Shown piece by piece: positions 9,042 through 64,000 of a DNA stretch of 64,000 nt. The notes beneath the pieces were generated by a model. The model saw only the letters and a list, made by a program, of their open reading frames with translations. It was not told where the DNA came from and searched no databases. Every line of letters starts with the position of its first letter. Within the stretch, counting starts at the first letter, position 1. A program made the translations under genes and the position numbers. The stretch lies in assembly GCA_044225505.1 (NCBI GenBank), contig JBGAIN010000001.1:19642-83641 (forward strand). Reading direction: 5' to 3'. Source of the DNA: Limisphaerales bacterium. GTDB lineage: Bacteria; Verrucomicrobiota; Verrucomicrobiia; Limisphaerales; SIBE01.

Positions 9042-12000
9042 ATGACCAGTCAGAGAACGGCATTTGGGGTGAGTCTATTCGCCACGCGCGAATTGCAATC
9101 AGTATTGTGTTATGCGATCGCGCTGGTGACAATGGCAGGGATTTCCTTGGCACTAGCCGTCCCGACGGGCGATGCGTCCGGCCCTACGGTGCATCTGCAG
9201 GAAGTTGTTGGCACGGTGGAAATCCATCCGCCCGACGCGGCCGACTGGAATGGTGTGAACCCCCGCTTTGCCAACCTCCCTTTGGCTCCCGGAAGTGGCG
9301 TGCGGACTCGCGAAAGGAGCCGAGCCGCGTTACGTGTGAACGTGACCGCGTATTATCTGAGGCAGAACAGCACGTTACGCCTGGAGTCCAAGCTGAACGC
9401 GGCCGGGCGGCCGGTGGTCTTTCTTGAAACCGGCAGCTTCTTTCTTGCAAATCGGGAACGCGTCAGCGAATTGGAAATTCATACGGCCGCGGTGGAGATT
9501 CGTCCCCGCGGCACTGAACTTGCAATTGATATCTCTGCCGACGGCACAACCACCGTCTCGGTTCTCGAAGGCGAAGCGGATCTGGTCACAAGCCAAACCC
9601 CAGGCGGCTTTTTGATCAAAGCTGGCCAACAAGGCCAAGTCCGGCCTGGCCAGGCACCCATCAAGACTCCCATAGTCGCTAGCTATGCCCAAGTGCAATG
9701 GATTCTGCATTACGCGGCAATCCTGGATCTTCGGGAACTCCCGCTTCCAGTGGAGGCCGTCATCGCCCTCGACAGATCGTTGGCGCATTTTCGAGAGGGC
9801 GCATTGCTCGACGCCTGGACCGAATATCCGCCAGACCGGTTGCCTAATTCCCCGGCGGAAGCGGTCTATTACTCCGGGCTGCTGTTCGCGTTCGGTGAAA
9901 TTAAGGAGGCCGAGGCGAGACTTCGGTCCGTCGTCATGTCGAAGGACACTCCGACCATGGTCCAGCACCTGGCGCGGGCTCACCTTCAACTCATGGCCGC
10001 GGTGACTCGCCAACCATTCGCCTTAGCGGAAACGCCAGACACCGCGACCCAGTGGCTCGCGCGGTCCTACGAAGCTCAATCCCAGCTTGATCTGGCTCGA
10101 GCGCTCGCGGCGGCCCGTCGGGCGGTGGAAATCTCGCCGGACTTCGGATTTGGTCTTGCGCGCGTCGCCGAATTGGAATTGGGCCGTGGCGACGTCGCTG
10201 CCACCCGCGTCGCTATTGACCGAAGCCTGGCCGTCTCTCCGCGCAATCCGCCAGCGCTCACCGTGCGCGGCTTCTTGTTGGCGGCAAATAACCTGACCAA
10301 AGATGCGCTCGCATCTTTCAATCAAGCCCTGGAAATCGATCCTCGACTCGGCGATGCCTGGCTCGGTCTCGGCCTTTGTCATTGGCGCCAGGGTGATTTG
10401 GCTCTAGCCCGGCAGAGCTTCGTCGCCGCTGCAACTTCTGAGCCGCAGCGTGCCTTGCTGCGCAGCTATCTAGGGAAGGCATTTTACGAGCTCGGCGATG
10501 ATCGGCGGGCGCTCAAAGAATTTAGGCTCGCTAAGGAAATGGATGCGAACGATCCCACAGCCTGGCTCTACAGCGCGTTGACGTTGCGACAAGACAATCG
10601 CATCAACGAGGCCATTCAGGATCTCGAACTCTCGGTCGAGCTGAACAAAAATCGCGGTATTTACCGCTCGCAGCTCATGCTGGATGGGGACCGGGCGGTG
10701 CGGGGCGCGAATCTCGCTCGCATTTATGAGGATAACGGGATGTTGAATCGCAGCGTTCAGGAAGCGGCGAGAGCTGTGGCCGCCGATCCTGCCAACGCGT
10801 CCGCGCATTTGTTTCTTGCGAACAGCTACAACGCGCTGCGCGATCTCCGACAGATCAATTTGCGTTACGAGACCCCATGGCTCAGTGAGTATCTGCTCGC
10901 GAACCTGCTTGCCCCGGTTGGTGTCGGCCTGCTTTCTCAACAGGTCTCTCAGCAGGAATACTCGCGCCTCTTCGATCGGGACCGGCTCGGACTGAGTTCG
11001 AGCACGGAGTATTTCAGTGCTGGGGATTGGAGGCAGGAAGCGACCCATTTCGGCGTCTTTGGTGGGACGAGCTACGCCATTGAATCGTCCTACCGATCAC
11101 ACAGCGGCCGACGGCCGAATGAAGACTTTGATCAGCTCACCGTCAGCGCCATGGCTAAGCAGCAACTCACACTGCAGGATTCGATTTATCTTCAAGGGGT
11201 GTACTATGACGCCCATTCGGGTGACGTAGCCCAGTATTTTGATCCGGCATCGGCGCACTTGCAGCTGCGCACCCATGAGTCGCAAGAGCCGATACTGATC
11301 GCAGGCTATCACCGCGAATGGCAGCCGGGCGTCCACACACTCGTGCTCGCCAGCCGTTTCCAGGACACGCTGAGGCTGACCGACCCTGAGCACGCGATAT
11401 TGGTTCGTGGCCGCACGCGTGAGGGCGTCCTCAGCCATATTCAGCAGTCGGAGCTGGATCCGAATATAGCGCCGCCGGTGGCACCGCTCGATTACCAGAC
11501 TGAGCTCGAAGGTTACTCGATTGAGCTCCAGCAACTCTGGCAGCGCGATCTTAACAGCATCACTCTTGGAGGACGTCTCCAATCTGGAACATTCGACACT
11601 TCGAGCCGCCTGGGTGCGTCAACCCCGACGCTCCTTGCGAATGCGTCCTCGGTCTCCGGCGGTGCCGTCCATACAGCTCCGATCGTCCAGGACATCGGCA
11701 ATGATTTCAATCGAGCCAGCTTCTACGCCTATGATCATTGGCGGCCATTTCAGCCGCTTGTCTTGGTGGGAGGCGTCAGTTATGAGACACTCACTCAGCC
11801 AAACAATTTCCGTTTTACTCCACTGACGTCCGGCGAGTTCAGCAACGACCGCGTCTCACCTAAGCTCGGCGCCATTTGGTCGCCGTGGCTTGGCAGTTCG
11901 CTGCGGGCAGCTTACTCGCGGGGGCTCGGGGGCGTCAGTTTTGATCAGAGTTTTCGTCTTGAACCGGTGCAGATTGCCGGCTTCACGCAAACGTTTCGTA

Positions 12001-12650
12001 ATCTGGCCCCTGAATCAGCCGTCGGGTCGGTCTCTGGTGCGGAGTTTGAGAGCTGGGGGCTCGGTTGGGATCAGAAGGTCGGCGCTAGCACCTATTTTGG
12101 CGTCTCATGGGAGGAGCTTCGTTCCGAGGCCCAGCGCAGGCTCGGAACAATCGACTTTGCGGCGAATCAATCTGTGTCGAGCACGCTGCAACAGCTTGAC
12201 TACCATGAGCGCAATTTTGTCGCTTACGCGAACCAACTCATCGGCGATCGACTCTCGACGGGGGCACGTTATCGGCTGACAGACTCGGAACTCACGCTCG
12301 GCCTGCCTGAAATCCCTGCCTCGGTGTTGGTGAAGAACCCGCGATCTCAATCGGCACTCCTGCATGAATTGACACTCTTCACCGTTTTTCAGGATGCGTC
12401 CGGATTCTTCGCCGAGGCAAATGCAACTTGGCGTGCACAGTCCAACGACGGCTACTCGCCAGCTTTGAACGGCGATGATTTTTGGCAATTCAACGTTTTT
12501 GCGGGCTACCGGTCTAATCGGCGGCGGGCAGAATTGAGAATCGGGCTCATAAATGTGACCGATCAGGATTACCAGCTCAACCCGCTCACGCCTTACCCCG
12601 AGGCCTATCGCGACCGGACGCTTGTCCTTAGTTTCAAGTTCAACCTGTGA
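9042..12650 (+). CDS. FecR-like domain + TPR repeats + TonB-dependent-receptor-like outer membrane beta-barrel protein
   Basis: N-terminal hydrophobic segment, FecR-like VRTRERSRA...RGTE...VSVLEGEA, TPR-like helices (ALEIDPRLGDAWLGLG), amphipathic beta strands and a terminal LVLSFKFNL barrel-type end. Confidence 0.8.
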   Translation: MTSQRTAFGVSLFATRELQSVLCYAIALVTMAGISLALAVPTGDASGPTVHLQEVVGTVEIHPPDAADWNGVNPRFANLPLAPGSGVRTRERSRAALRVNVTAYYLRQNSTLRLESKLNAAGRPVVFLETGSFFLANRERVSELEIHTAAVEIRPRGTELAIDISADGTTTVSVLEGEADLVTSQTPGGFLIKAGQQGQVRPGQAPIKTPIVASYAQVQWILHYAAILDLRELPLPVEAVIALDRSLAHFREGALLDAWTEYPPDRLPNSPAEAVYYSGLLFAFGEIKEAEARLRSVVMSKDTPTMVQHLARAHLQLMAAVTRQPFALAETPDTATQWLARSYEAQSQLDLARALAAARRAVEISPDFGFGLARVAELELGRGDVAATRVAIDRSLAVSPRNPPALTVRGFLLAANNLTKDALASFNQALEIDPRLGDAWLGLGLCHWRQGDLALARQSFVAAATSEPQRALLRSYLGKAFYELGDDRRALKEFRLAKEMDANDPTAWLYSALTLRQDNRINEAIQDLELSVELNKNRGIYRSQLMLDGDRAVRGANLARIYEDNGMLNRSVQEAARAVAADPANASAHLFLANSYNALRDLRQINLRYETPWLSEYLLANLLAPVGVGLLSQQVSQQEYSRLFDRDRLGLSSSTEYFSAGDWRQEATHFGVFGGTSYAIESSYRSHSGRRPNEDFDQLTVSAMAKQQLTLQDSIYLQGVYYDAHSGDVAQYFDPASAHLQLRTHESQEPILIAGYHREWQPGVHTLVLASRFQDTLRLTDPEHAILVRGRTREGVLSHIQQSELDPNIAPPVAPLDYQTELEGYSIELQQLWQRDLNSITLGGRLQSGTFDTSSRLGASTPTLLANASSVSGGAVHTAPIVQDIGNDFNRASFYAYDHWRPFQPLVLVGGVSYETLTQPNNFRFTPLTSGEFSNDRVSPKLGAIWSPWLGSSLRAAYSRGLGGVSFDQSFRLEPVQIAGFTQTFRNLAPESAVGSVSGAEFESWGLGWDQKVGASTYFGVSWEELRSEAQRRLGTIDFAANQSVSSTLQQLDYHERNFVAYANQLIGDRLSTGARYRLTDSELTLGLPEIPASVLVKNPRSQSALLHELTLFTVFQDASGFFAEANATWRAQSNDGYSPALNGDDFWQFNVFAGYRSNRRRAELRIGLINVTDQDYQLNPLTPYPEAYRDRTLVLSFKFNL

Positions 12651-12695
12651 ACATTCTTTGCTGTTTTCAGAAAGCCCTTCTGACCAATCATAAAT

Positions 12696-15600
12696 CTATT
12701 TCTTTAGCGTCCGGTAGAACCGAAGGGGCCGGCCGGTTGCGGCCTCGGTCTCAAGATACTCCAAATCGCCGGTCGTGATGTTCGTCACCGAGATCACGCC
12801 CCAGTCCAAAAAGTTTTCCGTGGCTTCAATCTGATACCGACCTGCTGGCACGCGGCGACGGAATGAAAATCGCCCGTCTTTCAGCGCTGGAATCGTCGGT
12901 CCCGCGGCCGGATCGACCGCCGGCTCCAATCTCCAATTGATCTTAATGATGCCCGTGGCGCCGCGGACGCCATCGGCTTTCACTAGGTATTGCTGGCCTT
13001 TAAGCACCGGAATCTTCAACTGGCTGCGCACGCCATCAGGCGCCTCGTTGTCGTCGCAGCCCAGCACCGCTCCGAAGTCGTCGTCCGCGATTACAATCAG
13101 CAGGGTGTCAATGGCGCTGCCAATCGTGTCCACCACTAGAAACCCATCGTCCTGAGGACGAATGTCCATCCACTGGGAAGCGCCCCCAAGCACACACCGA
13201 ATTGGTTCCTTGGGTTCTGTGGTGGAACCGTAGTTGTTCAACACCTGCGTCCCTGGCAAACCGGCCACCGGCGAGACAAAGCTATTCGGCTCACGCTGCC
13301 GGTGTGATTGCAGGCCCAAGCCGCCCGGGCGCGCCGGATCAAGACGCAAGTCGCGCAGCTTGTCGGTAGCATGCGCCCGTGGATCCAGACCCAGTTGCAA
13401 CGATGCGGACCAACTATCCACGCTCTGACCTTGGACATTGCTCACGCGCGCAAAATATAATCCGGTCTGTTCGTCTTGCGCGTTCGGAACTCGCAACGTA
13501 GCGGCCGTGGCTCCAGTCAGCGCCTGTCCATTGAAGAACCACTGGTAAGTCAAGCCTGCGCCTTCCACCGTCACGCTGAAGATGGCGTCGCTGCCCGGTG
13601 CGACCGTCAGGCTCTGCGGTTGCCGGTCTCTGGTGATCACGGGCAGGACTTGCGGCGTAACTTCTAAATCCCAGCTCAAGGCCACATCCCCGTTGGCGCC
13701 AAAGTAGCCATCGACGGCAATCTGATAGTCGGTTCCCGCCACTGCGTTGAATCGCACCAGGCTCGTCAGAAACCCACCCCGATCTTCATCGCTGGCTACT
13801 TCGGTAAGCTTGTTGACGGCATCTCCGGTGTAAACGGCCAGCAACGTGTCAAAACTGCTGCCTGCGGTGGTGAAAGTGACGATGCCGCTGGCCGGGGCCT
13901 TCCAGGTAAGCCAGACCGATTTGCTTCCCGGCTTACCGCCGTGCGGCGGCTCTCCGGCTTCGGCCACCGCTTCGGCATTGTTTCCTTTGCCAGCCCCGCT
14001 CGTTCCCGCGATGCTGCCGCGCAGGGCAAACTGGTCGTTGAACGGCAGTGGGGACAGGAGCATGGTGAGTTGCGCTGGTTCGCTCTCTACGATTCCAGCG
14101 TCGTTTGACACGACAACCGTGTAACTGCCGCCGTCGCTCAAGCGTGCAGCGGGAATGGTGTAGGTTGCGTTGGAAGCCCCTTCCAGATTTACTCCGTTTT
14201 TGCGCCACTGATAAGCCAAGGGCAGGGCGCCTGTGGCTTCCACGTCGAGAGTCACCTGGCTTCCAGGGAGGGCCGATCGATCCGCAGGCTGTCGTTTGAT
14301 CCGAACCGGGAGGTTGGTGGCGTTTCCTGTCGCCTCAAGGCGCAGTTCCGTCGCTGATAAATTAACCTGCAACGTTACCTCTGGGCTTGAGGGCAAGCCG
14401 TTCAGGGTGGTAAAATTGCCGCCTCGGCTGCCGAACTTCATGACTGTGTAGACATCACCCGGATAAGGTTGGAATGACTGGGTCCACCCGACTGCCAGGG
14501 CGCCGTTCAATGTCGCTTTTCCTGTAACCACAAACTGGTCAAAATCCACGCCGGGATTAAGGCCGCCGATATCCACCAGCAAGCTTCCAGAACTGGATTG
14601 TTCGTAATTACCGCGGATGGTGAGGCTCCCAAGCGGATCGCCGGGCATTAGAGCCCCTGCGCTTATCAAAGTGCCAGCGTCAAGGTCGAGCGTCCCAGAG
14701 CCGCCCAGGATTCCATTGGAGCGATTCTCCAAAGACCCTCCGGAAAGCGACACCGTGCCGCCGTCCGTGAAGAATCGTCCCGAGTTGATAAATTTGCCCG
14801 AAAGCTGGCGGCCGCCGCCACTGCCGGCGTTGATCTGGAGGGTGCCCTGGTTGAAGAGTGTGTTCCCACTGCTGACTGATAGGTTGGCGTTCCAGGTGCC
14901 TTCAATGGATTCCAGTTTGATCGTCCCTTGGTTGGTCGCGTTGCCCTGAATCGTCACGCTGGCGTTTCTCCCGTCGTTTTGTCCACGCACCCATAGCGTT
15001 TGCGCCGGAGCCAGAATTCCCGCTCAAGGTTGTGGGGATGCTGGTAGCAGGCCAGGTTATCGCCACGAAGTTCGCGGCCCCGGTTGACCCTGGGCCAACG
15101 TTCAATGTCGCTGAGGCCAGAATGACAGCGCCGTTCACCGTCCCACCATTGAAATTGAAGGTGCCGCCTTGCATTTCGAAAGCGCTGTCAGAGGGCACAT
15201 CGATGACACCGGCGGTCTGCGCCAAGGCGACGTTATTCAAAATAGTGCGCTGGCCGTTCCCCAACGCGATCCGCCCCGTGTTGGTAATGCGCCCGTCGAT
15301 CTGGCGGCCGCCGCCGCTGCCAGCGTTGATCTGGAGGGTGCCCTGGTTGACGAGTGTGTTCCCACTGCTGACCGATAGGTTGGCGTTCCAGGTGCCTTCA
15401 ATGGATTCCAGTTTGATCGTCCCTTGGTTGGTCGCGTTGCCCTGAATCGTCACGCCGGCGCTTCTCCCGTCGTTTTGTCCACGCACCCATAGCGTTTGCG
15501 CCGGAGCCAGAATCCCGCTCAAGGTTGTGGGGATGCTGGTAGCAGGCCAGGTTATCGCCACGAAGTTCGCGGCCCCGGTTGACCCTGGGCCAACGTTCAA

Positions 15601-16496
15601 TGTCGCTGAGGCCAGAATGACAGCGCCGTTCACCGTCCCACCATTGAAATTGAAGGTGCCGCCTTGCATTTCGAAAGCGCTGTCAGAGGGCACATCGATG
15701 ACACCGGCGGTCTGCGCCAAGGCGACGTTATTCAAAATAGTGCGCTGGCCGTTCCCCAACGCGATCCGCCCCGTGTTGGTAATGCGCCCGTCGATCTGGC
15801 GGCCGCCGCCGCTGCCAGCGTTGATCTGGAGGGTGCCCTGGTTGACGAGTGTGTTCCCACTGCTGACCGATAGGTTGGCGTTCCAGGTGCCTTCAATGGA
15901 TTCCAGTTTGATCGTCCCCTGGTTGGTCGCGTTGCCCTGAATCGTCACGCTGGCGTTTCTCCCGTCGTTTTGTCCACGCACCCATAGCGTTTGCGCCGGA
16001 GCCAGAATCCCGCTCAAGGTTGTGGGGATGCTGGTAGCAAACAGGTTATCGCCACGAAGTTCGCGGCCCCGGTTGACCCTGGGCCAATGTTCAATGTCGC
16101 TGGCCAGAATGACAGCGCCGTTCACCGTCCCACCATTGAAATTGAAGGTGCCGCCAAACATTGTGAAATCTTCAACTGTATCAAGTATCCCTCCCGACAG
16201 ATTCACGCGCCCGTTGCTTTGCGACGTCTTTAGACGCACGCTGCCTCCTCAAGGTTAACGTGGCATCATTTCTCAGACTTCGGAGGATAAACGCACCTGC
16301 AGCGACTCGAATGGTTCGATTCGCCGCGGAGACTATGGTCACATCGTCGTCTGCCGTCGGGACTTTTTTAGCATCCCAGTTTGCGGCATCACCAAAGGAG
16401 CTACCGTCGCCGACGCCAGTCCAGAAACGACGCCCCAGGCGACTGAAGCCCACTCATGAGGTAGATGAACAGAATCAAGCCCAACGGGTATCTCAT
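12696..16496 (-). pseudogene. Large secreted surface protein (autotransporter-passenger-like beta-helical repeats, Ig-like domains, PPC-like domains, C-terminal FYR tail) broken by several indels; real pseudogene or sequencing error
   Basis: Signal peptide MRYPLGLILFIYLMSGLQSPGA from ATG 16496; coding continues across frame changes near 16425, 16250, 16040/16100 (compensating) and 15017 into ORFs 16181-16453, 14902-16239 and 12696-14990. Ig motifs YQWRKNG...DGGSYTVVVSN and YQWFFNG. Confidence 0.8.
14805..16155. repeat. Intragenic tandem repeat, 495-bp (165-aa) unit, about 2.7 near-identical copies
   Basis: Same sequence recurs at 15032, 15527 and 16022; shadow ORFs 15032 and 15527 are identical. 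Confidence 0.95.
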
Positions 16497-52828: not shown

Positions 52829-53383
52829 TTATTGGTATCGAATGGCGTCAAACAACCATGCGCGAGCGAAATTCCAATAGTTCTTTACTGTAGAGACGGA
52901 GAGGTTGAGGACTTGTGCAGTTTCTTCGTTAGTCATCCCGCCGAAATACCGGAGCTTTGTGACTTGAGCCTGCACGGGATGCTCATGCGAAAGTCGTTCG
53001 AGAGCTTCATCCACCGCGAGCAACTGGTCATCTTCGCCGGGGGCTGCCAGACCGGCTTCCTGCAATTCGACATGCTCGTACTGACCTCCGTGGCGCAGCG
53101 TTTGTCGGCGTCGCGCTCGGTCAATGAGAATCCGGCGCATGGCTTCGGCCGCCACTGCAAAGAAGTGCGCGCGATTTTCGAACTTTCGATTTCCCGTCCC
53201 AACCAGCTTCAACCAGGCTTCATGAACCAACGCGGTGGGTTGGAGCGTCTGCCCGGGGCATTCTCGAGCCATTTTATAAGCTGCCAGGCGCCGTAATTCT
53301 TCGTAAGCCAGCTCAAGCAACTGATCGGCAGCCTTAAAGTCGCCCTGTTCCACGTCGGTCCGCAATGCGCTGGCCTCACTCAT
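52829..53383 (-). CDS. ECF sigma factor, TIGR02999/ECF43-like
   Basis: YEELRRLAA...GQTLQPTALVHEAWLKL, RAHFFAVAAEAMRRILIDRAR, LRYFGG, WNFARAWL. Confidence 0.93.
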   Translation of the reverse strand: MSEASALRTDVEQGDFKAADQLLELAYEELRRLAAYKMARECPGQTLQPTALVHEAWLKLVGTGNRKFENRAHFFAVAAEAMRRILIDRARRRQTLRHGGQYEHVELQEAGLAAPGEDDQLLAVDEALERLSHEHPVQAQVTKLRYFGGMTNEETAQVLNLSVSTVKNYWNFARAWLFDAIRYQ

Positions 53384-53434
53384 ATTCGCCTCACGAGCAT
53401 GGCACGGCGGATGCCAGGGGCAACGACATTCGCG

Positions 53435-56400
53435 TTACGGCTTCTTTGTGTCACTTTGGTGAGGTGGGCGCTGGGCAACGGCGGTGGCCTCATCGAGAGC
53501 GATGCGGGCAATGAGCCAGGCTACCCAGGAGCCGCCAAACTTTTCGACGCCGCGCTCAGGAGTGATTTTCGGTGCCAATGCTTCACCTTTTGCTAGCACG
53601 GTGTGTGCGTCGGCCTCACGGCCGAGTCGCCAATTGGTCATCGATAGGACTGCGCAGGCATAAGCGCTCGCGTAGGCTTGAGGACTTTCGAGAACTTTTT
53701 GACCCCAGGTCAAGGCTTCCTCGTAATGGCCTAATCGATAGCTTGCCATTGCCTTGCACCCCTGGAAATACGGCATGCTGTCTTTTTCGGTGCTGCCTCG
53801 ACTTACGGCAATGTCGGCCAACGCGTCTACGGTTCGCAAATCAACGCCTGAGTCTGGGAGAAGCAAACAGTCGGTCGCCATTCGCTGAGCCCAGTAAGGA
53901 TTGGTCGTGTTGCTGAAAGTCGCGAGGATCTTTCTGCACAATTGCTCATATGCCCGACGGTTTTGGGTTACCACCAGGAGCGGTGCGAGGATATGGTAGT
54001 GGTAGTGCTCGGCCGGTTGATGCTCGATAGACCGGGCCGCATCGGCTGCAGCTTCTTCCCACCGACCCTGGCGACCCATGAAGTCGGCCCGTTGAAAGAG
54101 TAGCTTGACGCTTACGGGCTCCCTCAAGAGAGTTGGAGTTAGCGCGTGTGCGAGGACCCGCTCCGCTTCGTCGAACTTCCTCTGCTCCCACAAGGCTCGG
54201 GCGAGTCCTTCGACCTCCAAAACGGTCTGGGGATCGTCATTTCCAAATTGCTTGCGTTTTAGTTCCAGAGTTTGTTGTCGAACCGTTTCCGCTTCCACCC
54301 AATTTCCTTCTTTTTCCAACGTGGAACCAAGGCCGGTCAGAGTGGCGAGGACATCTGGATGCTCGTCGCCCAGCAGCTTGCGTTGGATAGAAAGGGCGGC
54401 GTTCAAGACCGTGTGCGATTCCGTAAGGTTACCGTTTTGCCGCATGCGGTCGCCTAGCAGGTAAATAGATCTAGCCACGTCAGGATGTTCATCGCCCAAC
54501 TGCTTTCGTTGGATGTCAAACGCTTGAGTTTCCAGGGTCTCGACCTCTCCCGAATGGCTCCCCAAGACCCAGGCCAAATCGGCCAGCGCTGCCGCCACGA
54601 GGGGATGATCGTTGCCAAGCAACCGGCGGCGCATGGCGAGCATCTCCCGCGCGACACTTTCAGCTTCCTTATGCTGGCCACGATCGCCAAGAACGATGCA
54701 AAGATTACGAAGAGATTCGGCCACATCCAAATGCTCGTCTCCGAAAAGCCTTCTCCGCATTTCCAAGCTATCGCGCGTGAACTTCTCGGAGTCGGCGAGT
54801 CGCTTCTGGCGGCGATACACGGCGCCCAGATTGTTAAGTGTTGCTGCCACATCCGCATGCTCGTTTCCGAACAGTCTCCGCCGAATAGCCAGGGCTTCCT
54901 GATAGGCCGCCTCGGCTTCGGTTAGCTTGCGTTGTTTCCAAAGTGCCATTCCGAGGTCATTGAGCGAAGAGGCTGCGTCTGCGCTCTCCCTTCCCGTGTT
55001 CTTCCGGTTCAGCATTAAGGCTGAACGGGCCATCGCTTCAGCCCCTTCGTAGTTTCCTATTTCCAGATAGAGCCGGCCGATTAAGCCTCGCATTTCCGCC
55101 TCTACTCCAGGCTGATCGCCAACTTGCTGACCGATTTGCTGCGCGGTCTTGTCCAGAATCTCCCGCAGCATCTCGGTATTGCGCCCACGAGCCACGGATG
55201 GCCCGACACCTTCTAACATGTTTTTCAGGAATTGGGTCGCCTGTCGGCTCCGCACTTCCTCAGTCTCGGCTTTTAGGCGCGCACGTCGTTCGTTGGTAAG
55301 AGCGCCTGTCACCACCGCCAGACTGGTCACAATGAGTGCGACGACGATCCCGATTCCAGCCGAGAGCAATTTGTTCCGCTGCACTGCCTTTTTGAATTTG
55401 TAGAACTTGCTGCACGGACGTGCGGAGACAGTTTCGTTGGCCAGGTAGCGTTTCACGTCCAGCGCGAGACCGTTGGCTGTTTCGTAACGGCGAGTCCGAT
55501 CCTTCTCAAGCGCCTTCATCACGATCCAATCTAAATCGCCGCGGACCGTTCGAATTAAGTTGGGAGCTTCCGATCGATGGTGTTGCGCCACAGTCGTCAG
55601 ATCTGTCACCACCATTGTGCTCAGCCGCGTCGATGGTCGGACCGGCTCTACTTCTCGAATGACACGGCGGATTTCGTCGAGACCTGCTTTCAAGAGAGCA
55701 CCGCCATCAAAGGGCGTCGAACCGGTTACTAGTTCGTATAGCAACACGCCGAGGCTGTAGATGTCTGTGCGCGTGTCTACGTCGGCGCTGGAGAGCGCCG
55801 CCTGCTCGGGGCTCATGTAGGCCGGGGTCCCAATGAGCATTTCGAAGGCGGTGAAGAGCGTCTTGTCTGTCAACCGTTGATTGGTAGTCGCCTTGGCGAT
55901 GCCGAAATCAATCACCATTGGCAATGGCTCGCCTTCCATCGTCCCTGTCACAAGGATGTTGGAAGGTTTGAGATCACGGTGAATGATGCCCTTCTGGTGC
56001 GCGTGCTGCACGGCCTGACACACTTGCTGGAACAGTCCGAGCCGTTCCTTCGTCGGCAGCGAATTTTGGTCGCAATATTCCGTGATCTTAACGCCGCGGA
56101 TGAGTTCCATGACGAAGAACGGCCGACCGGATGCCGTCGCTCCTGCATCGAACACCTTGGCGATGTTAGGATGATTCATGAGCGCAAGGGCTTGCCGCTC
56201 GGCTTCGAAGCGCGCGATCACGCTCTTCGTGTCCATCCCAGGCTTGATAATCTTCAATGCCACGCGACGGCGCACCGGCTCTTCCTGTTCTGCCATGAAC
56301 ACCACCCCGGCACCTCCCTCGCCGATTTGCTGCAACAGTCTGTAGCGACCGATGCGGTCGTCAGGCTTTTCGCCGACGGCATGCGTTCTTCTCGTTCCGG

Positions 56401-56584
56401 CGGGGCCGGGCGGCCGCTCCATGAAATGGCCGGCCTCGGAATGTGCGCGCAGCAGCACTTCAACGCGTGCTCTCAGCGCGTGGTCATCGCCACATTCTCG
56501 CGCTAAATACTCTGCGCGTTCCCGGACCGGGAGTTCCGACGCCGCGGCAAAGACCGCCACGTCTCTGCTCGGTTTTTCATCCAT
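53435..56584 (-). CDS. Ser/Thr protein kinase with TM helix and TPR repeats
   Basis: ERAEYLARECGDD..LRARVEVLL N-terminus, IGEGGAGVVF, HRDLKPSN, DFGIAK, GTPAYMSPEQ, repeated LFGNEHADVAATLNNLG-type TPRs; start placed at MDEKPS. Confidence 0.95.
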   Translation of the reverse strand: MDEKPSRDVAVFAAASELPVRERAEYLARECGDDHALRARVEVLLRAHSEAGHFMERPPGPAGTRRTHAVGEKPDDRIGRYRLLQQIGEGGAGVVFMAEQEEPVRRRVALKIIKPGMDTKSVIARFEAERQALALMNHPNIAKVFDAGATASGRPFFVMELIRGVKITEYCDQNSLPTKERLGLFQQVCQAVQHAHQKGIIHRDLKPSNILVTGTMEGEPLPMVIDFGIAKATTNQRLTDKTLFTAFEMLIGTPAYMSPEQAALSSADVDTRTDIYSLGVLLYELVTGSTPFDGGALLKAGLDEIRRVIREVEPVRPSTRLSTMVVTDLTTVAQHHRSEAPNLIRTVRGDLDWIVMKALEKDRTRRYETANGLALDVKRYLANETVSARPCSKFYKFKKAVQRNKLLSAGIGIVVALIVTSLAVVTGALTNERRARLKAETEEVRSRQATQFLKNMLEGVGPSVARGRNTEMLREILDKTAQQIGQQVGDQPGVEAEMRGLIGRLYLEIGNYEGAEAMARSALMLNRKNTGRESADAASSLNDLGMALWKQRKLTEAEAAYQEALAIRRRLFGNEHADVAATLNNLGAVYRRQKRLADSEKFTRDSLEMRRRLFGDEHLDVAESLRNLCIVLGDRGQHKEAESVAREMLAMRRRLLGNDHPLVAAALADLAWVLGSHSGEVETLETQAFDIQRKQLGDEHPDVARSIYLLGDRMRQNGNLTESHTVLNAALSIQRKLLGDEHPDVLATLTGLGSTLEKEGNWVEAETVRQQTLELKRKQFGNDDPQTVLEVEGLARALWEQRKFDEAERVLAHALTPTLLREPVSVKLLFQRADFMGRQGRWEEAAADAARSIEHQPAEHYHYHILAPLLVVTQNRRAYEQLCRKILATFSNTTNPYWAQRMATDCLLLPDSGVDLRTVDALADIAVSRGSTEKDSMPYFQGCKAMASYRLGHYEEALTWGQKVLESPQAYASAYACAVLSMTNWRLGREADAHTVLAKGEALAPKITPERGVEKFGGSWVAWLIARIALDEATAVAQRPPHQSDTKKP

Positions 56585-56667
56585 GTTCTTCTGCCTCCGA
56601 CAAACGCGAACGTTTCGGTCTGGTGATCGGCATTTGGCCGACGAGCCGCTACAAGCTCTGTTAGTGT

Positions 56668-56697
56668 AGAAGCGAGATTTCGGTCCGAATAGGACAA
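56668..56697 (-). promoter_or_regulatory. Putative ECF promoter TTGTCC-N13-ATCTCGCTTCT
   Basis: About 85 nt upstream of the kinase start; matches 52670-52699. Confidence 0.6.
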
Positions 56698-57093
56698 ATG
56701 CGTGATCCGTTAAAGTTTTCCCACGATTCGACGGTCGATCTCGGAGGCCCAAAGCCATGCTTGGAGGATAATTCGAGCAACTCGCACGCCTTATTGTTAA
56801 AGACCTCAGATCCAAACTCGACTACATCTTGAATGATCCCACCTTGAAGATCCTGCAAGGAGCCGGTTCTCGCCCGTCCAGGGGTTCTGGACCGTTGTTT
56901 TTTGGGTTACTTCTGCGTTCCCGTGGGAGCTAGCCAAGCGCCTGCTCCTGGTCGCACGGACTCTGAACATGAACCGGTGCGCGCCTTGGCACGGAAATGC
57001 ACGCAAAAATTCTGGACAAGGTTTCTGATTCCGTTCACGTCACTTTCGACGCGGCCAAGGACGGTCAGCCACTAGGTTGAGCAGTCGTTCCAG

Positions 57094-58515
57094 TTACTGC
57101 GAAGCTCGCTTTGCCTGTCCCTTGTGACGAAAATAAGGTATTCCGAGCTTGCGGCGCCTCTGCTGCACGGATGACACGTGCCGATGCAATCGCCCGGCAA
57201 TGTCGCTATCGCTCGCTGTCCCTAAAAGCGCATCCTCCTTGATCGTAAACAATCGCCATCCGGGCTTGAAAGGCGGGACACTCAATCTGAAGCGCCGGTT
57301 TTCAACTGCGCTGACAGTACGGCAGAGTTTCCTGGCCACGTCTCGATCACTCATGGTTCCGAGGTGCTTCTCCTCCTCAGTATTCCAAGGACGATGGCGC
57401 GCCGGCGTTTTCCCTAATTTGACACGTCGATCCCGCACGCTGCTGACCGTTCTGCCGAGTTCTCGAGCGACCTCGAGGTCGGTCTTCTTGCCCAATAATG
57501 CGTCCTCGACCGCGGTCCACCCCTTGGGCCGGGAGGCGTTCGACTCTTTCAGGATTCCCAGTCGCGAACGCCGCTGCTTGACGGCGTGCTCACTCGTCCT
57601 TAAGAGCATAGCGACTTGCTTGTCCGGTCGTGTGCCCAAGATCTTGTCGTCTTCAGGGCTCCAACAATGCCTCGTATCACCAAATGCGCGAATACCTTTA
57701 TCAACTCGCCGTGCGCGGACCGACTGAATACTCCGGTTCAATTTCTTGGCGAGCTTCTGGTCCGGCATCGTCCCCAACAACCGGTCTTCTGCATCCACCC
57801 AGCGGATGATTGGACGTACAAATCCGGGGATGCCAAGCAGTTTGCGCCGGCGCCGGACAAGCGACCGTGGTCGCCCCAGCTTCAAGGCGAGCTCTCGATC
57901 TGGAATTGTCCCTAAGAGCAGCTCTTCCTTCCCCTCCCAGGGCTGGTAACCGGGGCGCGGCGGCAAGGCTAATTTGCGTTTCCGCCGGCGGGTCCGCACT
58001 GCCGCGACGCTATGCCCTGTGCGTGAAGCCACTTTCTCATCCGGGAGCTTTCCCAGAAGGGCATCCTCGCCTTGAGTCCACGAATGAGACTTTAAACCAA
58101 ACATCCGTATTCCGAGTCTGATGCGCTTCTGACGGACGGAATCTTCTGTCCGAAGCAACTGCTGCGCGAGTTGGGCATCAGACATAGTCCCAAGGAGCGC
58201 TATGCCATCAGAGTTCCAGCCGATGTGTCTCGGTTCGAAAACGGGAATGCCAATCATGTTTCGCCGTCGACGAACTGCCGCCACAGAGCGCCCCAGGAGA
58301 GCGGCGAGCTTCTCGTCGCGCATCCTACCGAGGAGTTCAATTTCACTGAGCGTCCAGTCGGGCGCGCGCTGCCGGCCCGAGTCCGTTCGGGCGCGGCGAA
58401 GGCGTCGCCTTGGCGGGTGCGTCTGCCGCAGCAAGCGTGCCGCTTCGTGATCGGATTTATTGGCTAGGAGCGAGCGCCGGCGATTTTCGGGTTCACGTTG
58501 GAAATGGCCGACCAT
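57094..58515 (-). CDS. Hypothetical protein made of nine tandem ~46-aa Myb/SANT-like HTH repeats
   Basis: Consensus WTxxEDxLLGTxPDxxLAxxLGRSxxAVxxRRxxLGI repeated nine times plus one degenerate N-terminal unit; very Arg/Lys-rich; no signal peptide or TM helix. Confidence 0.85.
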   Translation of the reverse strand: MVGHFQREPENRRRSLLANKSDHEAARLLRQTHPPRRRLRRARTDSGRQRAPDWTLSEIELLGRMRDEKLAALLGRSVAAVRRRRNMIGIPVFEPRHIGWNSDGIALLGTMSDAQLAQQLLRTEDSVRQKRIRLGIRMFGLKSHSWTQGEDALLGKLPDEKVASRTGHSVAAVRTRRRKRKLALPPRPGYQPWEGKEELLLGTIPDRELALKLGRPRSLVRRRRKLLGIPGFVRPIIRWVDAEDRLLGTMPDQKLAKKLNRSIQSVRARRVDKGIRAFGDTRHCWSPEDDKILGTRPDKQVAMLLRTSEHAVKQRRSRLGILKESNASRPKGWTAVEDALLGKKTDLEVARELGRTVSSVRDRRVKLGKTPARHRPWNTEEEKHLGTMSDRDVARKLCRTVSAVENRRFRLSVPPFKPGWRLFTIKEDALLGTASDSDIAGRLHRHVSSVQQRRRKLGIPYFRHKGQAKRASQ

Positions 58516-58603: not shown

Positions 58604-60031
58604 TCAGAATCCCCGACTGACCGTCTGCCCATCGGATTTTCCGGCCAGTTGCTCCACTACCGATTTGGTCCGCGCCACCACGAAGGGTATGATTGGCTTC
58701 ACCTCAAGAGGACCTGCAAATCCGGGGCCCATAGAGATTGTTACCTTCTCCCCAATCGTGGCCTTGTTCAGAGCAGCGAGCTGCTCTGAAGACTCCTCCT
58801 CTAATGGACCACGGAGGACGTTGGCCAACTCGTCCACCTGCCGTTGAATGCGCGCAGGTTCGAAAAGTGTTCCGCTGAACTCCTGCAATTTCGCCAGGTA
58901 AGCCTTCTTGAACGAGTCTACTTTAAAAACGCGCTCGAGAAAGCGATTCTCGCCTGTCCAGGGCTTTTGGATGGTCAAATTCTCTCGCTGCTCTTGGGTT
59001 CCGCGGGGGAACTGGCCGAAGGGTTGGTCCTGGTCCCAGGGAATGAATGTGAACCGGTGCGTGCTCGGATGGAGATAGACGTAAAAGTTCTGACCAGGGC
59101 CCAGAATGCCGTCGAGGTCCGTTGACCAGGCGGTGATGGCCATGTAACGCGCAAAGTTGTCGATCTCCAGGTAGGTGGGCAATTTGGCAGCGAATTCGTT
59201 ATCCTTGGCTTTGGTGGCGAACTGACAAAACTGAATGATCCGCTGTTTGTCCTCGTTCGAGAGACCACCTTTGGGATCGTAAGTCTGATTGTAGTTTTTC
59301 CAATCGTCACCGAGGTCGTTGAACAGGTTCGGAGTCACCGGTTTGAGCAGCGCTCCCTTGGAACTCCCAAATCGCTCTTTGGCGAACTCTTTGGAGATGT
59401 CTTCAACCAGGTCGTAGAGTCCGAAATACTTTTGTTCGTATTTGCCGGAAACGGTGACGTAGACCTTGGCGTATGCCGTGCGCGGCGCGGGAACCCCGCC
59501 ATCGCGGAAGAGACGGTAAGCGACGGCTTCATTCATGGAGCTGGGGTCGCGCACCGAGTTGTGAAGGTTCAGTTGAGACATTTCAGCAAGCTTCTGGCCC
59601 TTTTGAAACTGATCCAGATCGATCTTGAACGATCGTTTGATGCTCTGCTGTGAACTGAAGAAAGTGCCGTTCCCTTTGTAACGGACGCCCACATCCTTAA
59701 ATTTATTTGTACCGAACTCCAAATCGGCATGGACATAGTCGAAGACGAACCCGAAAGCAGACGCGATCCCGTTCCTGCTCCCCTCCGGACCCTGGAGAAA
59801 GCTTCTGGGTCGACCTGGACCTCCAGGTGATCTTGGCCTTTGTTTCGGCTCCATCGCCTCCCATTGCTCTGGCGTGAAGCTCAGATGCAATGTCCAAACA
59901 TTCGTGAAACCAAAGATCGCCTCAGGAGCAAGGGGCGTCGACCGGCCGCTGATGGGCGCGTCGGCCGCTGGTGACGAACTCTCCCGGAGACACAGCAGGG
60001 CCGTTGCGAGTAGTAAAGTGGTTCGAATCAT
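58604..60031 (-). CDS. Secreted CotH-family kinase
   Basis: Signal peptide, VGVRYKGNGT, KRSFKID, GVPAPRTAYA, GLYDLVE, NFYVY, FIPWDQD. Confidence 0.88.
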   Translation of the reverse strand: MIRTTLLLATALLCLRESSSPAADAPISGRSTPLAPEAIFGFTNVWTLHLSFTPEQWEAMEPKQRPRSPGGPGRPRSFLQGPEGSRNGIASAFGFVFDYVHADLEFGTNKFKDVGVRYKGNGTFFSSQQSIKRSFKIDLDQFQKGQKLAEMSQLNLHNSVRDPSSMNEAVAYRLFRDGGVPAPRTAYAKVYVTVSGKYEQKYFGLYDLVEDISKEFAKERFGSSKGALLKPVTPNLFNDLGDDWKNYNQTYDPKGGLSNEDKQRIIQFCQFATKAKDNEFAAKLPTYLEIDNFARYMAITAWSTDLDGILGPGQNFYVYLHPSTHRFTFIPWDQDQPFGQFPRGTQEQRENLTIQKPWTGENRFLERVFKVDSFKKAYLAKLQEFSGTLFEPARIQRQVDELANVLRGPLEEESSEQLAALNKATIGEKVTISMGPGFAGPLEVKPIIPFVVARTKSVVEQLAGKSDGQTVSRGF

Positions 60032-60106
60032 AGAATTGAAGCTGGACCCTGCGCGGATTAAAGGGCGTGCAAACCCGGCAGGGTCACCCGTGAATGTAAG
60101 GAGGTG

Positions 60107-61825
60107 CTACTTGGCCTTCACGTCGTAACAGAATAACGTGTCCTGGTCCCGGATGTAGAGCTTACCATTCGCAATCACGGGATGTGCCCAGGCCGGTTTG
60201 TCCGTGCGGTCGGGCTGATCAAACCGGCCACGTTCGATGTATTCTTTACGATTGGGCTCAATCAGAACGACCGGGCCTTCCTCGGTGCGGTAATAGATCC
60301 GGCCGTCTGCGAACGCGACTGAGCCTTTGGTGACCCGACGCTTCTCCCGATCCGCTTCGTTCCACAGGACCTCGCCAGTCTTATAATCAAGACACGCCAA
60401 ATAGCCGCCGCCATTACCGCCGTTTGCGCCGAATAAAGCGCCATCGTGAAGGATTACTCCGCCGTGATGGTTTTCCATCGACTTCGAAAACCAGACTTCC
60501 TCGGCGGCGAACTCGCCGGTTGCTTTCTTAGTCAACCGCACTGATCCACCTCCAGCCCCATAGGCCGAAGCAGCGAACACTTGGCCGTCCTGATAGATCG
60601 GCGTGGAAATGTTGAGCCGCATTCCGTTGGCAGGCTTGTCATACCGCCAAAGCAGCTTGCCGTCGTCTGCGGAAACTCCAGCTACGGTCATGGCCAGGAA
60701 TTGCACGTATTGGTGCTGGCCGCCAAAGTCGATGGCGATCGGTGATGAGTAACCGGCGCCGGTGTTTTGCGGGCCCATGAATTTCATGCCGACTTCGTCC
60801 TCAATAAGTTTGCCGTCGTGATTTGCGTCCAGCTTTTGCAGCGCCGCCACCGCGTTCTTAATCTCCGCATCATCAATCACGCCATTTTCGTCGGCATCCA
60901 GGGCAGCAAGCGCTTTCATCATCCGCATGATGCCCGGGCCTCGACGGGGACGTGGTCGATTATTTTGGCCGTCGCGCCCTCCCATCTGGGGAGTGATTTC
61001 ATCCTCAGAAAGTTTGCCATCCTGATTCTTGTCCATTTTGAGGAGAGCAGCCGGCGCCGCGGCCAGTTCATCCGCTGAGATTTCCTTGTTGTGATCCTGG
61101 TCGAGAGTGGAGAGCGTGGGATCTGTCTCAATGGCACTGGGCCGATTCCCACCAGGGCCGCGGTTTTGCGTTCCGCCGCCAGACACGCGGTCCGGCACAT
61201 AGCTCTTCCAGATCGTCTCGCCGTTAGCCTTGTTCAGCGCGACCATCGTCGTTTCGTCTCCACCGGGTGTGCAGATCACTTTCTCGCCGTCAATGAGAGG
61301 CGATTCTCGAAAATTCCACATTGGGCTTTTTCCTCCGAAGTCTGCCTTCAGATTCCGTCGCCAGACCACCTTCCCGTCAGCCGCTTGGAGGCATTCCACA
61401 TTGCCCGCAAGTCCCATCACATAGAGTCGATCCCCATCCACGGTCGGAGTGGCGCTCGGACCTTCTTTTGATTGCGGCCAGTTCTGGGCAAGCGCGGGCG
61501 CCAGCCGGACCGCCCAGATTTCTTTGCCATCTTTCTCCGAAAGAGCCCAGACGACTTCGTCGCCGCCGCGATGGGCCATTCCGTAGATCCGACCGGCGAC
61601 CACGGACGGGGCGCCGTCGCCACCGCCGAGTCCCTTGACTTTCCAGGCGAGCGGCGGCCCACCCTTGGGCCATTGGTTGAGGAGGCCTGTTTCTTTGGAA
61701 TGGGCTGTGCGGTCTGGGCCTTGCCATTGCGGCCAATCGTTGGCGTACGCATAAGACATCAGCAGGCCCGAGGCAAACATGCCTAGGACGGGTTTGGCAA
61801 ATCGTTTAGGTCGTTTGGTGTTCAT
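60107..61825 (-). CDS. Secreted PQQ-like/BamB-like beta-propeller protein with an inserted four-EF-hand module
   Basis: [34 protein letters not shown]; loops [48 protein letters not shown]. Confidence 0.88.
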
Positions 61826-61876
61826 GAGGTGTTTAGAAGAGCTAGAAACGAGTGGTTCGCGTTAGATGCTTCGCCT

Positions 61877-64000
61877 TCATTCTTTCGGCCGGTTAAGTCC
61901 CTGTGGTGGGGCGTTGGCGTGGGTCGGGTCACGTGTCCCATCCAGCAGCCTTAGACCACTGGCCGTTTTCGCCACGAGCCACTGGCCGTCAGCAGAGAAT
62001 AGAATGTCTCTAATTGGATCAACCAAGCGTTGGATGGAAAGCAGTTCCTGCTGAGTTTGAACATTCCAAAAACGAAGAGTGCTGTCGTCACTGACGGAGG
62101 CGAGAGTTTCTCCGTCGGGAGCCAGCGCCAGCCACCGTATTCCCTGCGTATGCCCTTGGCAAATGCCCAGGAATTTCCCCGTTCGGGTGTTCCATAACCG
62201 AACCGCATTTTCGCTTTCCTTCATAGGATTGGATCCAATCGCGAGGATGCTGCCGTCATCGGAAAGAGCCAGTTGAGTGGCGAAGCCGAAGTCCGCCTCG
62301 ACTGGGAATTCCGCTTTGAGCGAGCGCGCCTTCGGGTCCCATCGCTTGATACTCCCGTCGTGGAGCGTCACCAGGGCCATGCCATTTCGAGCGAACAGAG
62401 CGCCCTTGCAATCCAATGGGATTGGCGGGTCGGCAAGGGATCGCAAATTCCACCAGAATGCGGAACTTCCGTCTCCCGCCAGGAGTGTCGCGCCGTCCGG
62501 GGCGATCGCTGCCCAGGAAAAGTGCCGGTCACGGTTGCCGAGCTCGACCGACCGCCGGTTATGCAGGTCCCATAGACGAAGTCCGCCTTCCCACATCGGT
62601 TCTGCCAGGGTGCGCAAGTCATCGCTGATGGCACCGGTCCAACGAGGCGTTTTGGCTAATTGAAGCTGGTCTTCGGGTTCGCCTGTCTCGAGGTTCAGCA
62701 GGACGAACTTGGAACCAGCGTTAATGGCCGCAAGCATCCGCCCATCTTTGGAGAATCTGATGGGTGTCCATGTTCCTTCGTAAAGTTTCTCTTTGGCGCC
62801 GGCGTTGGCTGGCCAAAACAGAACCCGACCGTCTTTGGCACCGCTGATGATGCCCCGACCGTCTGCGGCAAAAGCCGTAGCCCAGACCTCCGAAGGATTT
62901 CCGTGCAAAGTTTGCACGACTTGGCCGGCCCCGAAATCCCATAGCCGGAGTGAGTGATCCCAACTCGCTGAGGCGAGAAGTTTTCCGTCGGGAGCAAAGG
63001 CAAGGCCCGAGATCGTCCCGGAATGGGAGGCTGCATTAGGATGCGGAGGAATGCTTGCCAGTTTTCTTCCCGTCGCTGTATCCCAGACGTCGATCACAAA
63101 AATGCTGGCATCCCGAAGACTATTGCGGGCGGCAATAACGGAATTGCCATCAGGAGAAAACAATAAGACGTTTTTGTCCCTCATCATCCCGCCTGGCTCG
63201 ACAAACATGCCTTGCGAATTCTCTAGGACCAGTAACGGCTTAGCCGCAGCTACGTCCCAAAGCACGATGCCCTTGCTGCTGTCGATCGCCAGCACGGGTC
63301 CACGCGGCGCGAACGCAAACGGCGGTAGGCTGTTCGGAATTTCTGACACGAGCTTCCCGTCGGCACTGTTAAAGACGTGCGCCCCTGTAAAGGAATGCGC
63401 AGCCAGGAACTTTCCATCCGGCGAGAACGCGAGGGGAGAGCCGTGATCGGTGATAGAGTAGACCTCTGCCCAGTCGGAAATTCGCCAGACCCGGACCGTG
63501 CTTTTGCCGGCCGTGGCAAGGAGACCCGCGGTTGACAGCGCGAGCGAAGAACCTGGCTTAGCCAGGCTTTTTACCAAATCACCGGATTTCGAGTCGTAGA
63601 TTTTGACGGCATCGCGCAATCCGACGACCAGCCACTCCGGGGAGTTGGCCAGGGACAAGACGCTGGAGGGTTCCTGGGCCAGTAGCGTATGCTCGTCGCC
63701 TTGGGCGGCTCGCCACAAATATCGCCATTCGAATCGATCAGAACCAGCAGTGCGGTGCTTGGCCAGCAGGTTGGTTGCTCGGGCCAAGTTGCCCGCGAGA
63801 ATGGTATGGTGGGCAAGATTGACGTCGGCTACATACTCGTTGAGCTCTGCCTTTCCCTGACTAGCGAAAGCACGCTCTTTTTCCCGCTCGGCTTTCGAGC
63901 GGAGCAGTTCCTCGTTCTTTCGGCCCAGTTCGGCCGTACGTTCCGCGCGTGTCGCCCGAATAGCCTGCCAAATACTGACGGTGGTGCCAACTGCCACGAC
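61877..64000 (-). CDS. C-terminal WD40 portion of a probable Ser/Thr kinase (5' end off-window)
   Basis: VSIWQAIRATR...FEWRYLWR linker matches the kinase at 1-2207 (TSWQALRATR...WEWRYLWR); multiple WD40 blades. Confidence 0.85.
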   Translation of the reverse strand, partial: VVAVGTTVSIWQAIRATRAERTAELGRKNEELLRSKAEREKERAFASQGKAELNEYVADVNLAHHTILAGNLARATNLLAKHRTAGSDRFEWRYLWRAAQGDEHTLLAQEPSSVLSLANSPEWLVVGLRDAVKIYDSKSGDLVKSLAKPGSSLALSTAGLLATAGKSTVRVWRISDWAEVYSITDHGSPLAFSPDGKFLAAHSFTGAHVFNSADGKLVSEIPNSLPPFAFAPRGPVLAIDSSKGIVLWDVAAAKPLLVLENSQGMFVEPGGMMRDKNVLLFSPDGNSVIAARNSLRDASIFVIDVWDTATGRKLASIPPHPNAASHSGTISGLAFAPDGKLLASASWDHSLRLWDFGAGQVVQTLHGNPSEVWATAFAADGRGIISGAKDGRVLFWPANAGAKEKLYEGTWTPIRFSKDGRMLAAINAGSKFVLLNLETGEPEDQLQLAKTPRWTGAISDDLRTLAEPMWEGGLRLWDLHNRRSVELGNRDRHFSWAAIAPDGATLLAGDGSSAFWWNLRSLADPPIPLDCKGALFARNGMALVTLHDGSIKRWDPKARSLKAEFPVEADFGFATQLALSDDGSILAIGSNPMKESENAVRLWNTRTGKFLGICQGHTQGIRWLALAPDGETLASVSDDSTLRFWNVQTQQELLSIQRLVDPIRDILFSADGQWLVAKTASGLRLLDGTRDPTHANAPPQGLNRPKE

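Follow-up and report, generated by a model that had tools for sequence, protein, structure and literature searches.

Nine tandem helix-turn-helix modules in a putative DNA-reading protein from a Limisphaerales bacterium, and its relatives in mobile elements and CRISPR-Cas loci

Proteins with several small helix-turn-helix (HTH) units in tandem include the Myb proteins, paired domains, Cbp1 and transposase DNA-binding domains, and these known readers have two to about five units. The archaeal Cbp1 and Cbp2 are DNA binders of two or three units, and GcrA of Caulobacter crescentus has one small three-helix HTH domain with an N-terminal tryptophan, followed by a sigma-interacting zinc domain. In homing endonucleases and in TnsD of Tn7 an enzyme is directed to a long DNA site by a series of HTH modules; PMC10293859 describes TnsD-like proteins as having multiple HTH domains for target recognition. 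We describe here a 473 amino acid protein, P0001, encoded on the minus strand at positions 57094–58515 of a 64,000 nucleotide stretch of a Limisphaerales bacterium genome (assembly GCA_044225505.1, contig JBGAIN010000001.1, positions 19,642 to 83,641; below, "the window"). It carries nine different HTH modules, and we judge it somewhat better than an even bet that with these it reads the sequence of double-stranded DNA over a long or composite site, as a regulator or a site marker. The tandem HTH idea is extended here to nine units in P0001, up to 19 in its relatives and thousands of sequence clusters, and if the modules read DNA additively they would constitute a new natural scaffold for long-site recognition.

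The P0001 open reading frame (ORF), taken from the ORF list and its translation, has homologues with E-values down to 1.6e-83 and is present in one copy in its own genome. Its repeats span residues 53–467, with units starting at residues 54, 100, 146, 193, 239, 285, 333, 377 and 423, and the spacing of 44–48 amino acids and the fixed scaffold given in the initial annotation are both borne out: L, G (of the LLG motif), D, A, V and R are invariant in all nine units, and the leading W is present in eight and replaced by F in the ninth. A hidden Markov model (HMM) of the repeat trained on 246 other proteins, with P0001 left out, gives the nine units 44.1–53.7 bits, whereas the top score among 500 residue shuffles of P0001 with the same HMM was 6.1 bits and none reached 15 bits. 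The nine helix-3 strings quoted in that annotation all occur in P0001 as written. Pairs of repeats are 24–50% identical in protein sequence (mean 38%), and their DNA identity is so low (mean 47%, maximum 56%) that the duplication must be old, in line with the earlier view that the repeats are diverged and not recently duplicated. The description of the protein as highly basic and cytoplasmic in appearance also stands; P0001 has a pI (isoelectric point) of 11.6, 108 lysines and arginines against 52 aspartates and glutamates, a net charge of +56 and 16% arginine, and no membrane segment was found (the top 19-residue hydropathy is 0.58). Likewise no recognisable catalytic domain was found, and no Pfam or NCBIfam family passes its cut-off.

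Structure prediction agrees with the proposal that each unit is a minimal HTH module. The AlphaFold2 model of whole P0001, made without DNA from a 60-sequence alignment, has a mean predicted local distance difference test (pLDDT) score of 84.6 and three helices per unit, and a two-unit piece (residues 192–283) is modelled with a pLDDT of 92.3 and a predicted template modelling (pTM) score of 0.62. As modelled, each unit is a closed three-helix bundle with a core of its own, not a two-helix hairpin. In a structural search against representatives the top solved structure is the GcrA DNA-binding domain (5yiu_A; Z 5.4, root mean square deviation (rmsd) 1.6 Å, 43 of 49 residues), followed at Z 4.0–4.7 by the Mos1 and Tc3 transposase HTHs, Reb1, tandem engrailed homeodomains, c-Myb, an R2R3 MYB and SANT domains; such scores indicate what class of fold this is and do not establish homology. 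Also among the matches is the archaeal CRISPR repeat-binding protein 2lvs (Z 4.1), with 84 aligned residues covering both repeats of the two-unit model at an rmsd of 8.4 Å. Cbp1 and Cbp2 share with the P0001 family the tandem small HTH units on one chain and, in some relatives of P0001, the link to CRISPR arrays; P0001 differs in being bacterial and in having nine units, and the sequence match is not significant (2lvs has an E-value of 1.0 with the repeat profile, and there is no NCBIfam match). Foldseek with the whole model against the Protein Data Bank (PDB) gives the SNAPc Myb array 7xur_A as its best match (probability 0.97, at a weak E-value of 1.5e-3), and the leading matches are all DNA-bound tandem HTH domains. 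A viral structure library yields 12 matching proteins at E ≤ 1e-3, most of them without a name; the others are labelled AsnC family, transposase, endonuclease, GcrA or Myb-like.

The repeat was characterised further from 1,936 repeats collected from 247 relatives, 1,909 of which were aligned for counts at each position. The unit is 40 amino acids plus a linker, and its conserved positions are W1 (100%, the only tryptophan), L9, G10 (92%), D14 (93%), A18 (86%), V28 (83%, with isoleucine in another 14%), R32 (99%) and the L-G-I-P linker; the core positions other than the tryptophan are L, A, V and L. The greatest variability inside the last helix is at positions 25, 26, 29, 30, 33 and 34 (3.4–4.0 bits), which have the spacing i, i+1, i+4, i+5, i+8, i+9 and so lie with helical periodicity on one face, as the earlier remark about variable residues in the last helix had implied; positions 12 and 15, outside this helix, are similarly variable (3.6 bits). 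Position 24 is serine or threonine in 68% of repeats, and position 31 is arginine or lysine in 77%. The GcrA helix-turn-helix sits in the DNA major groove, its base contacts are R33, N34, I37, G38, H41 and R42, and its phosphate contacts include W3, T32 and K39, according to PMC5887438. The base-contacting residues would map onto repeat positions 25, 26, 29, 30, 33 and 34, and W3, T32 and K39 onto W1, 24 and 31, when the correspondence is derived from the ends of the aligned range (model residues 42–84 against chain residues −3 to 45) and not from a residue-level alignment. A mechanism can be proposed on this basis in which the scaffold of one tryptophan, LLG, Asp, Ala, Val, the invariant Arg and the LGIP linker would hold the fold of each module, and the last helix would be presented to the major groove with its six variable positions touching bases and the conserved Ser/Thr and Arg/Lys touching phosphates. 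The nine modules would then jointly read one long site or several neighbouring short ones, tens of base pairs in all, and the protein would serve in the cytoplasm as a regulator or site-marking protein.

No sequence relationship between P0001 and GcrA is detectable. GcrA has one such domain plus its zinc domain, and P0001 has nine and nothing else; a C-terminal sigma-70-interacting zinc domain is absent from P0001, whose repeats run to near its end and which contains only two cysteines (0.4% of residues). In GcrA the segment between helices 1 and 3 is also longer, by about six residues, and the GcrA Pfam family PF07750 is not listed at E ≤ 10 for P0001 or for any single repeat.

The initial annotation suggested that the array might read DNA with a per-repeat code as zinc-finger or TALE arrays do; a simple code of the TALE kind is not supported. 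TALE arrays have near-identical repeats and a small specificity alphabet, and the P0001 family has neither. A set of 687 non-redundant repeats shows 650 distinct signatures at positions 25, 26, 29 and 30 (674 ± 3 after column shuffling), so there is no small alphabet, and judged from the sequences the diversity of the repeats resembles that of zinc fingers or homeodomains. Every P0001 repeat is nearer to a repeat of another protein (58–74% identity) than to its siblings (43–56%). A group that we define here as subfamily A (54 proteins of ~468 amino acids and 9–10 repeats, 52–87% identical with a mean pairwise value of 69%, from type I-G CRISPR-Cas loci) supplies several of these partners in a different order, with P0001 repeat 3 resembling its repeat 8, repeat 5 its repeat 3, repeat 6 its repeat 4 and repeat 7 its repeat 1, which indicates that the repeat types are old and shared and have been rearranged along the chain. 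Within these 54 orthologues, positions 23, 27, 29 and 31 vary from repeat to repeat and are conserved from protein to protein; for example, N27 and W30 of repeat 4 are each kept in 51 of 54 members and R27 of repeat 6 in all 54.

We also asked whether P0001 belongs to a named family. It had been called Myb/SANT-like, and in shape this is correct, since it matches the c-Myb repeats and an R2R3 MYB at Z 4.0–4.3 with an rmsd of 1.8–3.1 Å, and it shares with the Myb/SANT arrays (c-Myb R2R3, SNAPC4, Reb1) the tandem three-helix units and a W-T-x-E-E-D-like start. By analogy with Myb, whose third helix reads DNA, the same may be proposed for P0001. The Myb/SANT unit is about 52 amino acids long with a core of three regularly spaced tryptophan or other aromatic residues, and that of P0001 is 46 amino acids long with one conserved tryptophan; Myb proteins have one to about five units, P0001 nine and its family 4–19. 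PF13921 (Myb_DNA-bind_6) reaches only E 0.048 on P0001 (14.3 bits, below its cut-off of 22.9), and PF00249 matches one of the nine single repeats, at E 0.23. With the whole protein, Pfam and NCBIfam give nothing above cut-off; the models that do appear are weak and of a generic HTH kind, namely HTH_23 at E 3e-5, Sigma70_r4_2 and the Myb model just mentioned from Pfam, and FapR alone, at E 0.0019, from NCBIfam; Pfam against single repeats gives nothing better than E 0.03. P0001 has no sequence match in the PDB at E ≤ 10, its nine-repeat profile finds nothing there better than E 0.08, and PADLOC gives only a chance-level 18-bit HTH match (mad1). Because it goes unrecognised by the sequence profiles of Pfam, NCBIfam and the PDB, we consider P0001 Myb-like in shape only and not a member of the Myb/SANT family.

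The only named family that matches P0001 is PHROG 323 ("transcriptional regulator, D5-like"), whose profile matches in four stretches at E 3.7e-45 (155.8 bits). The phage T5 D5 protein, a DNA-binding protein of the HTH type, is required for replication and for late transcription, according to its database record and PMC13405049. It differs from P0001 in its pI (6.3 against 11.6), BLASTP between the two gives E 0.76, and the repeat HMM scores T5 D5 at no more than 5.2 bits per stretch, which is no better than shuffled sequence. Since there is no direct similarity to T5 D5, the "D5-like" label is a transferred name and not a tested relationship.

The P0001 family is large and patchily distributed. 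HMMER over 1.84 billion representatives finds 3,754 at E ≤ 1e-3, 1,458 at E ≤ 1e-10 and 180 at E ≤ 1e-30, and the 247 relatives that were fetched have arrays of 4–19 units, are mostly repeats and nothing else, and have a median pI of 11.3. The two longer relatives that were scored are both pure arrays with no fused enzyme, and in the ten relatives with extra non-repeat regions the sole non-HTH domain is one SAP domain, in P0070. Their source names are "hypothetical protein" except for P0073 and P0089, which are called "DNA-binding CsgD family transcriptional regulator", and the nearest Atlas clusters are hypothetical proteins of Verrucomicrobiota and Pseudomonadota. The family is carried by 10 of 41 close relatives of the host (its own genome included), by 33 of 201 genomes sampled from the order (E ≤ 1e-8) and by two of 401 sampled from the phylum (E ≤ 1e-10, four candidates being scored per genome). 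A search of metagenome contigs with the P0001 pattern gave 42 matches, with no relative among them. No Pfam model exists for the family, and no study of it was found in the main text of open-access full-text papers and bioRxiv preprints (supplementary gene lists of CRISPR neighbourhoods may include it), so the family appears not to have been characterised.

Links to nucleases and mobile elements are present among these relatives. A Vibrio phage GIY-YIG homing endonuclease has its nuclease at residues 1–85 and four repeats of this family at residues 98–282 (20.7–33.7 bits each), and the attachment of the same repeats to a phage nuclease argues for a role in DNA targeting. P0001 differs from the homing endonucleases and from Tn7 TnsD in having no enzyme attached. 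The family occurs in 88 plasmid records, 66 of them from Pseudomonas. The 425 kb Pseudomonas plasmid pQBR103 (NC_009444.1) has eight places that match the family, all annotated as hypothetical, and one 305 amino acid protein of this plasmid consists of six canonical repeats. On an IncP plasmid a family gene adjoins a methyltransferase and a restriction-modification pair, and at another locus (L043) a family gene directly adjoins an MmeI-like restriction-modification enzyme. One IncP plasmid protein of the family has a pI of 6.9. Other neighbours are tyrosine integrases (five loci), a TrwC relaxase (L038) and ordinary metabolic genes. The family accompanies mobile elements and defence loci; the window copy is a stand-alone chromosomal member. 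Together with the CRISPR-Cas adaptation modules described below, these restriction, integrase, relaxase and homing endonuclease associations suggest that the family takes part in exchanges between mobile elements and defence. As a separate observation, three loci (L017:5528–6004, L018:5402–6004 and L051:8494–9054) have a small ORF of 158–200 amino acids immediately upstream of the array gene; it has no Pfam or PADLOC match and overlaps the start of the array gene in two of them.

Several observations weigh against sequence reading by P0001. The pTM of 0.47 for the whole model leaves the relative placement of the nine modules uncertain, and fold scores of Z 4–5.4 are low in absolute terms and can reflect a common arrangement, modest values being usual for a domain of only ~40 residues. 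A profile built from 146 repeats finds nothing in the PDB better than E 0.1, and GcrA is not listed there at E ≤ 10. The neighbours of P0001 in the window give no functional hint, and its net charge alone would give strong non-specific binding to nucleic acid. Finally, within orthologues the variable face of the last helix evolves fastest (1.57 bits, against 0.64 elsewhere), which also fits an unconstrained surface. The last two points would suit a non-specific nucleoid-associated protein, in which nine weak HTHs and a high charge coat or compact any DNA cooperatively, as would the pI and arginine content of P0001, the basicity of the relatives, the nearly invariant R32 and the mostly basic position 31. 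We nevertheless think this unlikely, because from a core chromatin protein one would expect a steadier presence than the patchy spread described above (the gene was not found in G002, a genome of the same genus), because the repeat-specific residues are kept among orthologues, because a homing endonuclease that targets DNA with these repeats must choose its site, and because some relatives, such as the IncP plasmid protein, are not basic.

Members of the family recur in type I-G CRISPR-Cas loci. In five of the ten loci found with the subfamily A profile the gene lies between the Cas_GSU0054 gene and a Cas4-Cas1 fusion, which is followed by Cas2, and arrays of 36-nucleotide repeats lie downstream; in one such locus the subfamily A stop codon overlaps the cas4-cas1 start by 4 bp. 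The position directly upstream of cas4-cas1 is seen in L015–L017, L020 and L022 and, in the order sample, in L027 and L064, and at L017 only adaptation genes and an array were observed beside the gene. In L018, L019 and L058 (the last from the order sample) subfamily A occurs with no cas gene in the fetched flank. Six of the 50 loci of the order sample are CRISPR-Cas linked, five of type I-G and one of type I-E, where three loci that duplicate those found with the subfamily A profile are counted once. Detection was by BLAST with type I-G Cas proteins and an exact-repeat array scan, with L039 examined further, so that among the 44 of 50 loci with no detected cas neighbour other CRISPR types were possibly missed. 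Cas1 is present in 113 of the 201 genomes of the order, and by a rough estimate random adjacency to cas genes is expected in well under one locus in 50; since the type I-G cases are orthologues, they may reflect one event. The type I-E locus, L039, has a ten-repeat gene of 520 amino acids (9343–10905) that ends ~350–415 bp from an array of 36 repeats of 29 nucleotides (11255–13442), which is followed by Cas1, Cas5, Cas7, Cas6e and Cse1, and its product is the best relative of P0001 in the order sample (41.6% identity over 440 amino acids).

These associations permit a broader picture in which the family is a kit of interchangeable HTH "letters", each reading a few base pairs with its six variable residues, so that arrays of 4–19 modules would specify tens of base pairs; members linked to cas genes or arrays would label the leader or the repeat so that spacers are integrated there or the array is transcribed, and P0001 would read one long chromosomal site. 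We regard this as unlikely. Marking of the leader or repeat is done elsewhere by IHF or Cbp1.

A further alternative is that P0001 is an orphaned CRISPR-Cas or defence accessory, formerly the partner of a cas adaptation module or array and now alone, its role changed or lost. It draws on the six linked loci among the 50 of the order sample, on the proximity of the L039 gene to its array and on a subfamily A copy that adjoins an intact cas4-cas1 in G001, a genome of the same genus. (The G001 frame, L022:5968–6669, also seen as L031, is 233 amino acids long with four repeats, and the subfamily A match has a stop codon inside it, so this copy is possibly decaying.) In the genome of P0001 itself, which is 95% complete, Cas1 and Cas2 were not found, Cas_GSU0054 was not found either (a weak negative, as the control for it matched nowhere), the I-G type repeat did not occur beyond chance, and a k-mer scan gave no arrays; no CRISPR array was found in the window. 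This makes P0001 a free-standing family member, and since its gene is intact with all nine repeats scoring highly, it is under selection without cas genes. It is also only 33–40% identical to subfamily A (over 67–93% of the query), with its best-matching repeats in another order, and most of the order-sample loci lack a detected cas neighbour, so we hold the orphan explanation to be improbable. More improbable still is an RNA- or protein-binding scaffold in which the modules pack as a solenoid, like PPR or mTERF proteins, on single-stranded nucleic acid or a partner, for which one could cite the arginine-rich composition, an inter-repeat linker modelled at a pLDDT of at least 91 in the two-repeat piece, and whole-model Foldseek matches to designed PPR proteins and helical toroids (E 3e-3 to 3e-2), but those matches have TM scores of 0.06–0.11 and rmsd values above 20 Å, the single unit matches double-stranded DNA-binding HTH domains and is predicted to be a closed bundle, and the GIY-YIG fusion partner acts on DNA.

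The P0001 gene may be described feature by feature, all on the minus strand and with the stop codon included in 57094–58515. The N-terminal 52 residues (58360–58515) are basic and predicted to be disordered (pLDDT 42–60) except for a helix at 22–32; a degenerate tenth unit within them was considered and rejected, as it scores 4.4 bits with the repeat HMM against the shuffle maximum of 6.1. Repeat 1 (amino acids 53–98; 58222–58359) has an HMM domain at 54–93 (52.3 bits) and predicted helices at 56–62, 67–74 and 78–87. Repeat 2 (99–144; 58084–58221; 46.7 bits) is delimited by the alignment and the AlphaFold2 model, and repeat 3 (145–191; 57943–58083; 51.3 bits) has its closest counterpart elsewhere in subfamily A repeat 8, at 65% identity. 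Repeat 4 (192–237; 57805–57942; 49.7 bits) is part of the two-repeat model, and repeat 5 (238–283; 57667–57804; 56.0 bits) is the unit aligned to the GcrA DNA-binding domain. They are followed by repeats 6 (284–331; 57523–57666; 45.8 bits), 7 (332–376; 57388–57522; 54.4 bits) and 8 (377–421; 57253–57387; 51.2 bits), and by repeat 9 (422–467; 57115–57252; 54.4 bits), the one in which F replaces the conserved W.

The neighbours of the P0001 gene, all on the minus strand, encode a CotH kinase-like protein, a PQQ/EF-hand protein, a WD40 protein, a Ser/Thr kinase with TPR repeats and an ECF sigma factor. The window has no tRNA genes, tblastn of it with the integrase, TrwC relaxase, MmeI-like enzyme and small upstream ORF queries gave no matches, and a promoter and terminator scan around the P0001 gene found nothing above shuffle expectation. 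The assembly is 9.04 Mb in 342 contigs. G002 (96% complete; locus L082) keeps the WD40-PQQ-CotH block order of window positions 58604–63997 (minus strand), with 68–78% identity in the WD40 and CotH proteins and 25–34% in the PQQ-like protein; no HTH-array gene follows CotH there, and in L082 the WD40 protein is fused to a kinase domain. At 52829–56815 (minus strand) the ECF sigma factor gene (PF07638) adjoins that of the Ser/Thr kinase with TPR repeats, which has 1,126 amino acids; the true start of the kinase ORF probably lies downstream of the listed TTG. Elsewhere in the window, at 14805–16155, there is a 495 bp tandem repeat (2.7 copies, 98% identity) that probably encodes repeated domains of a large protein.

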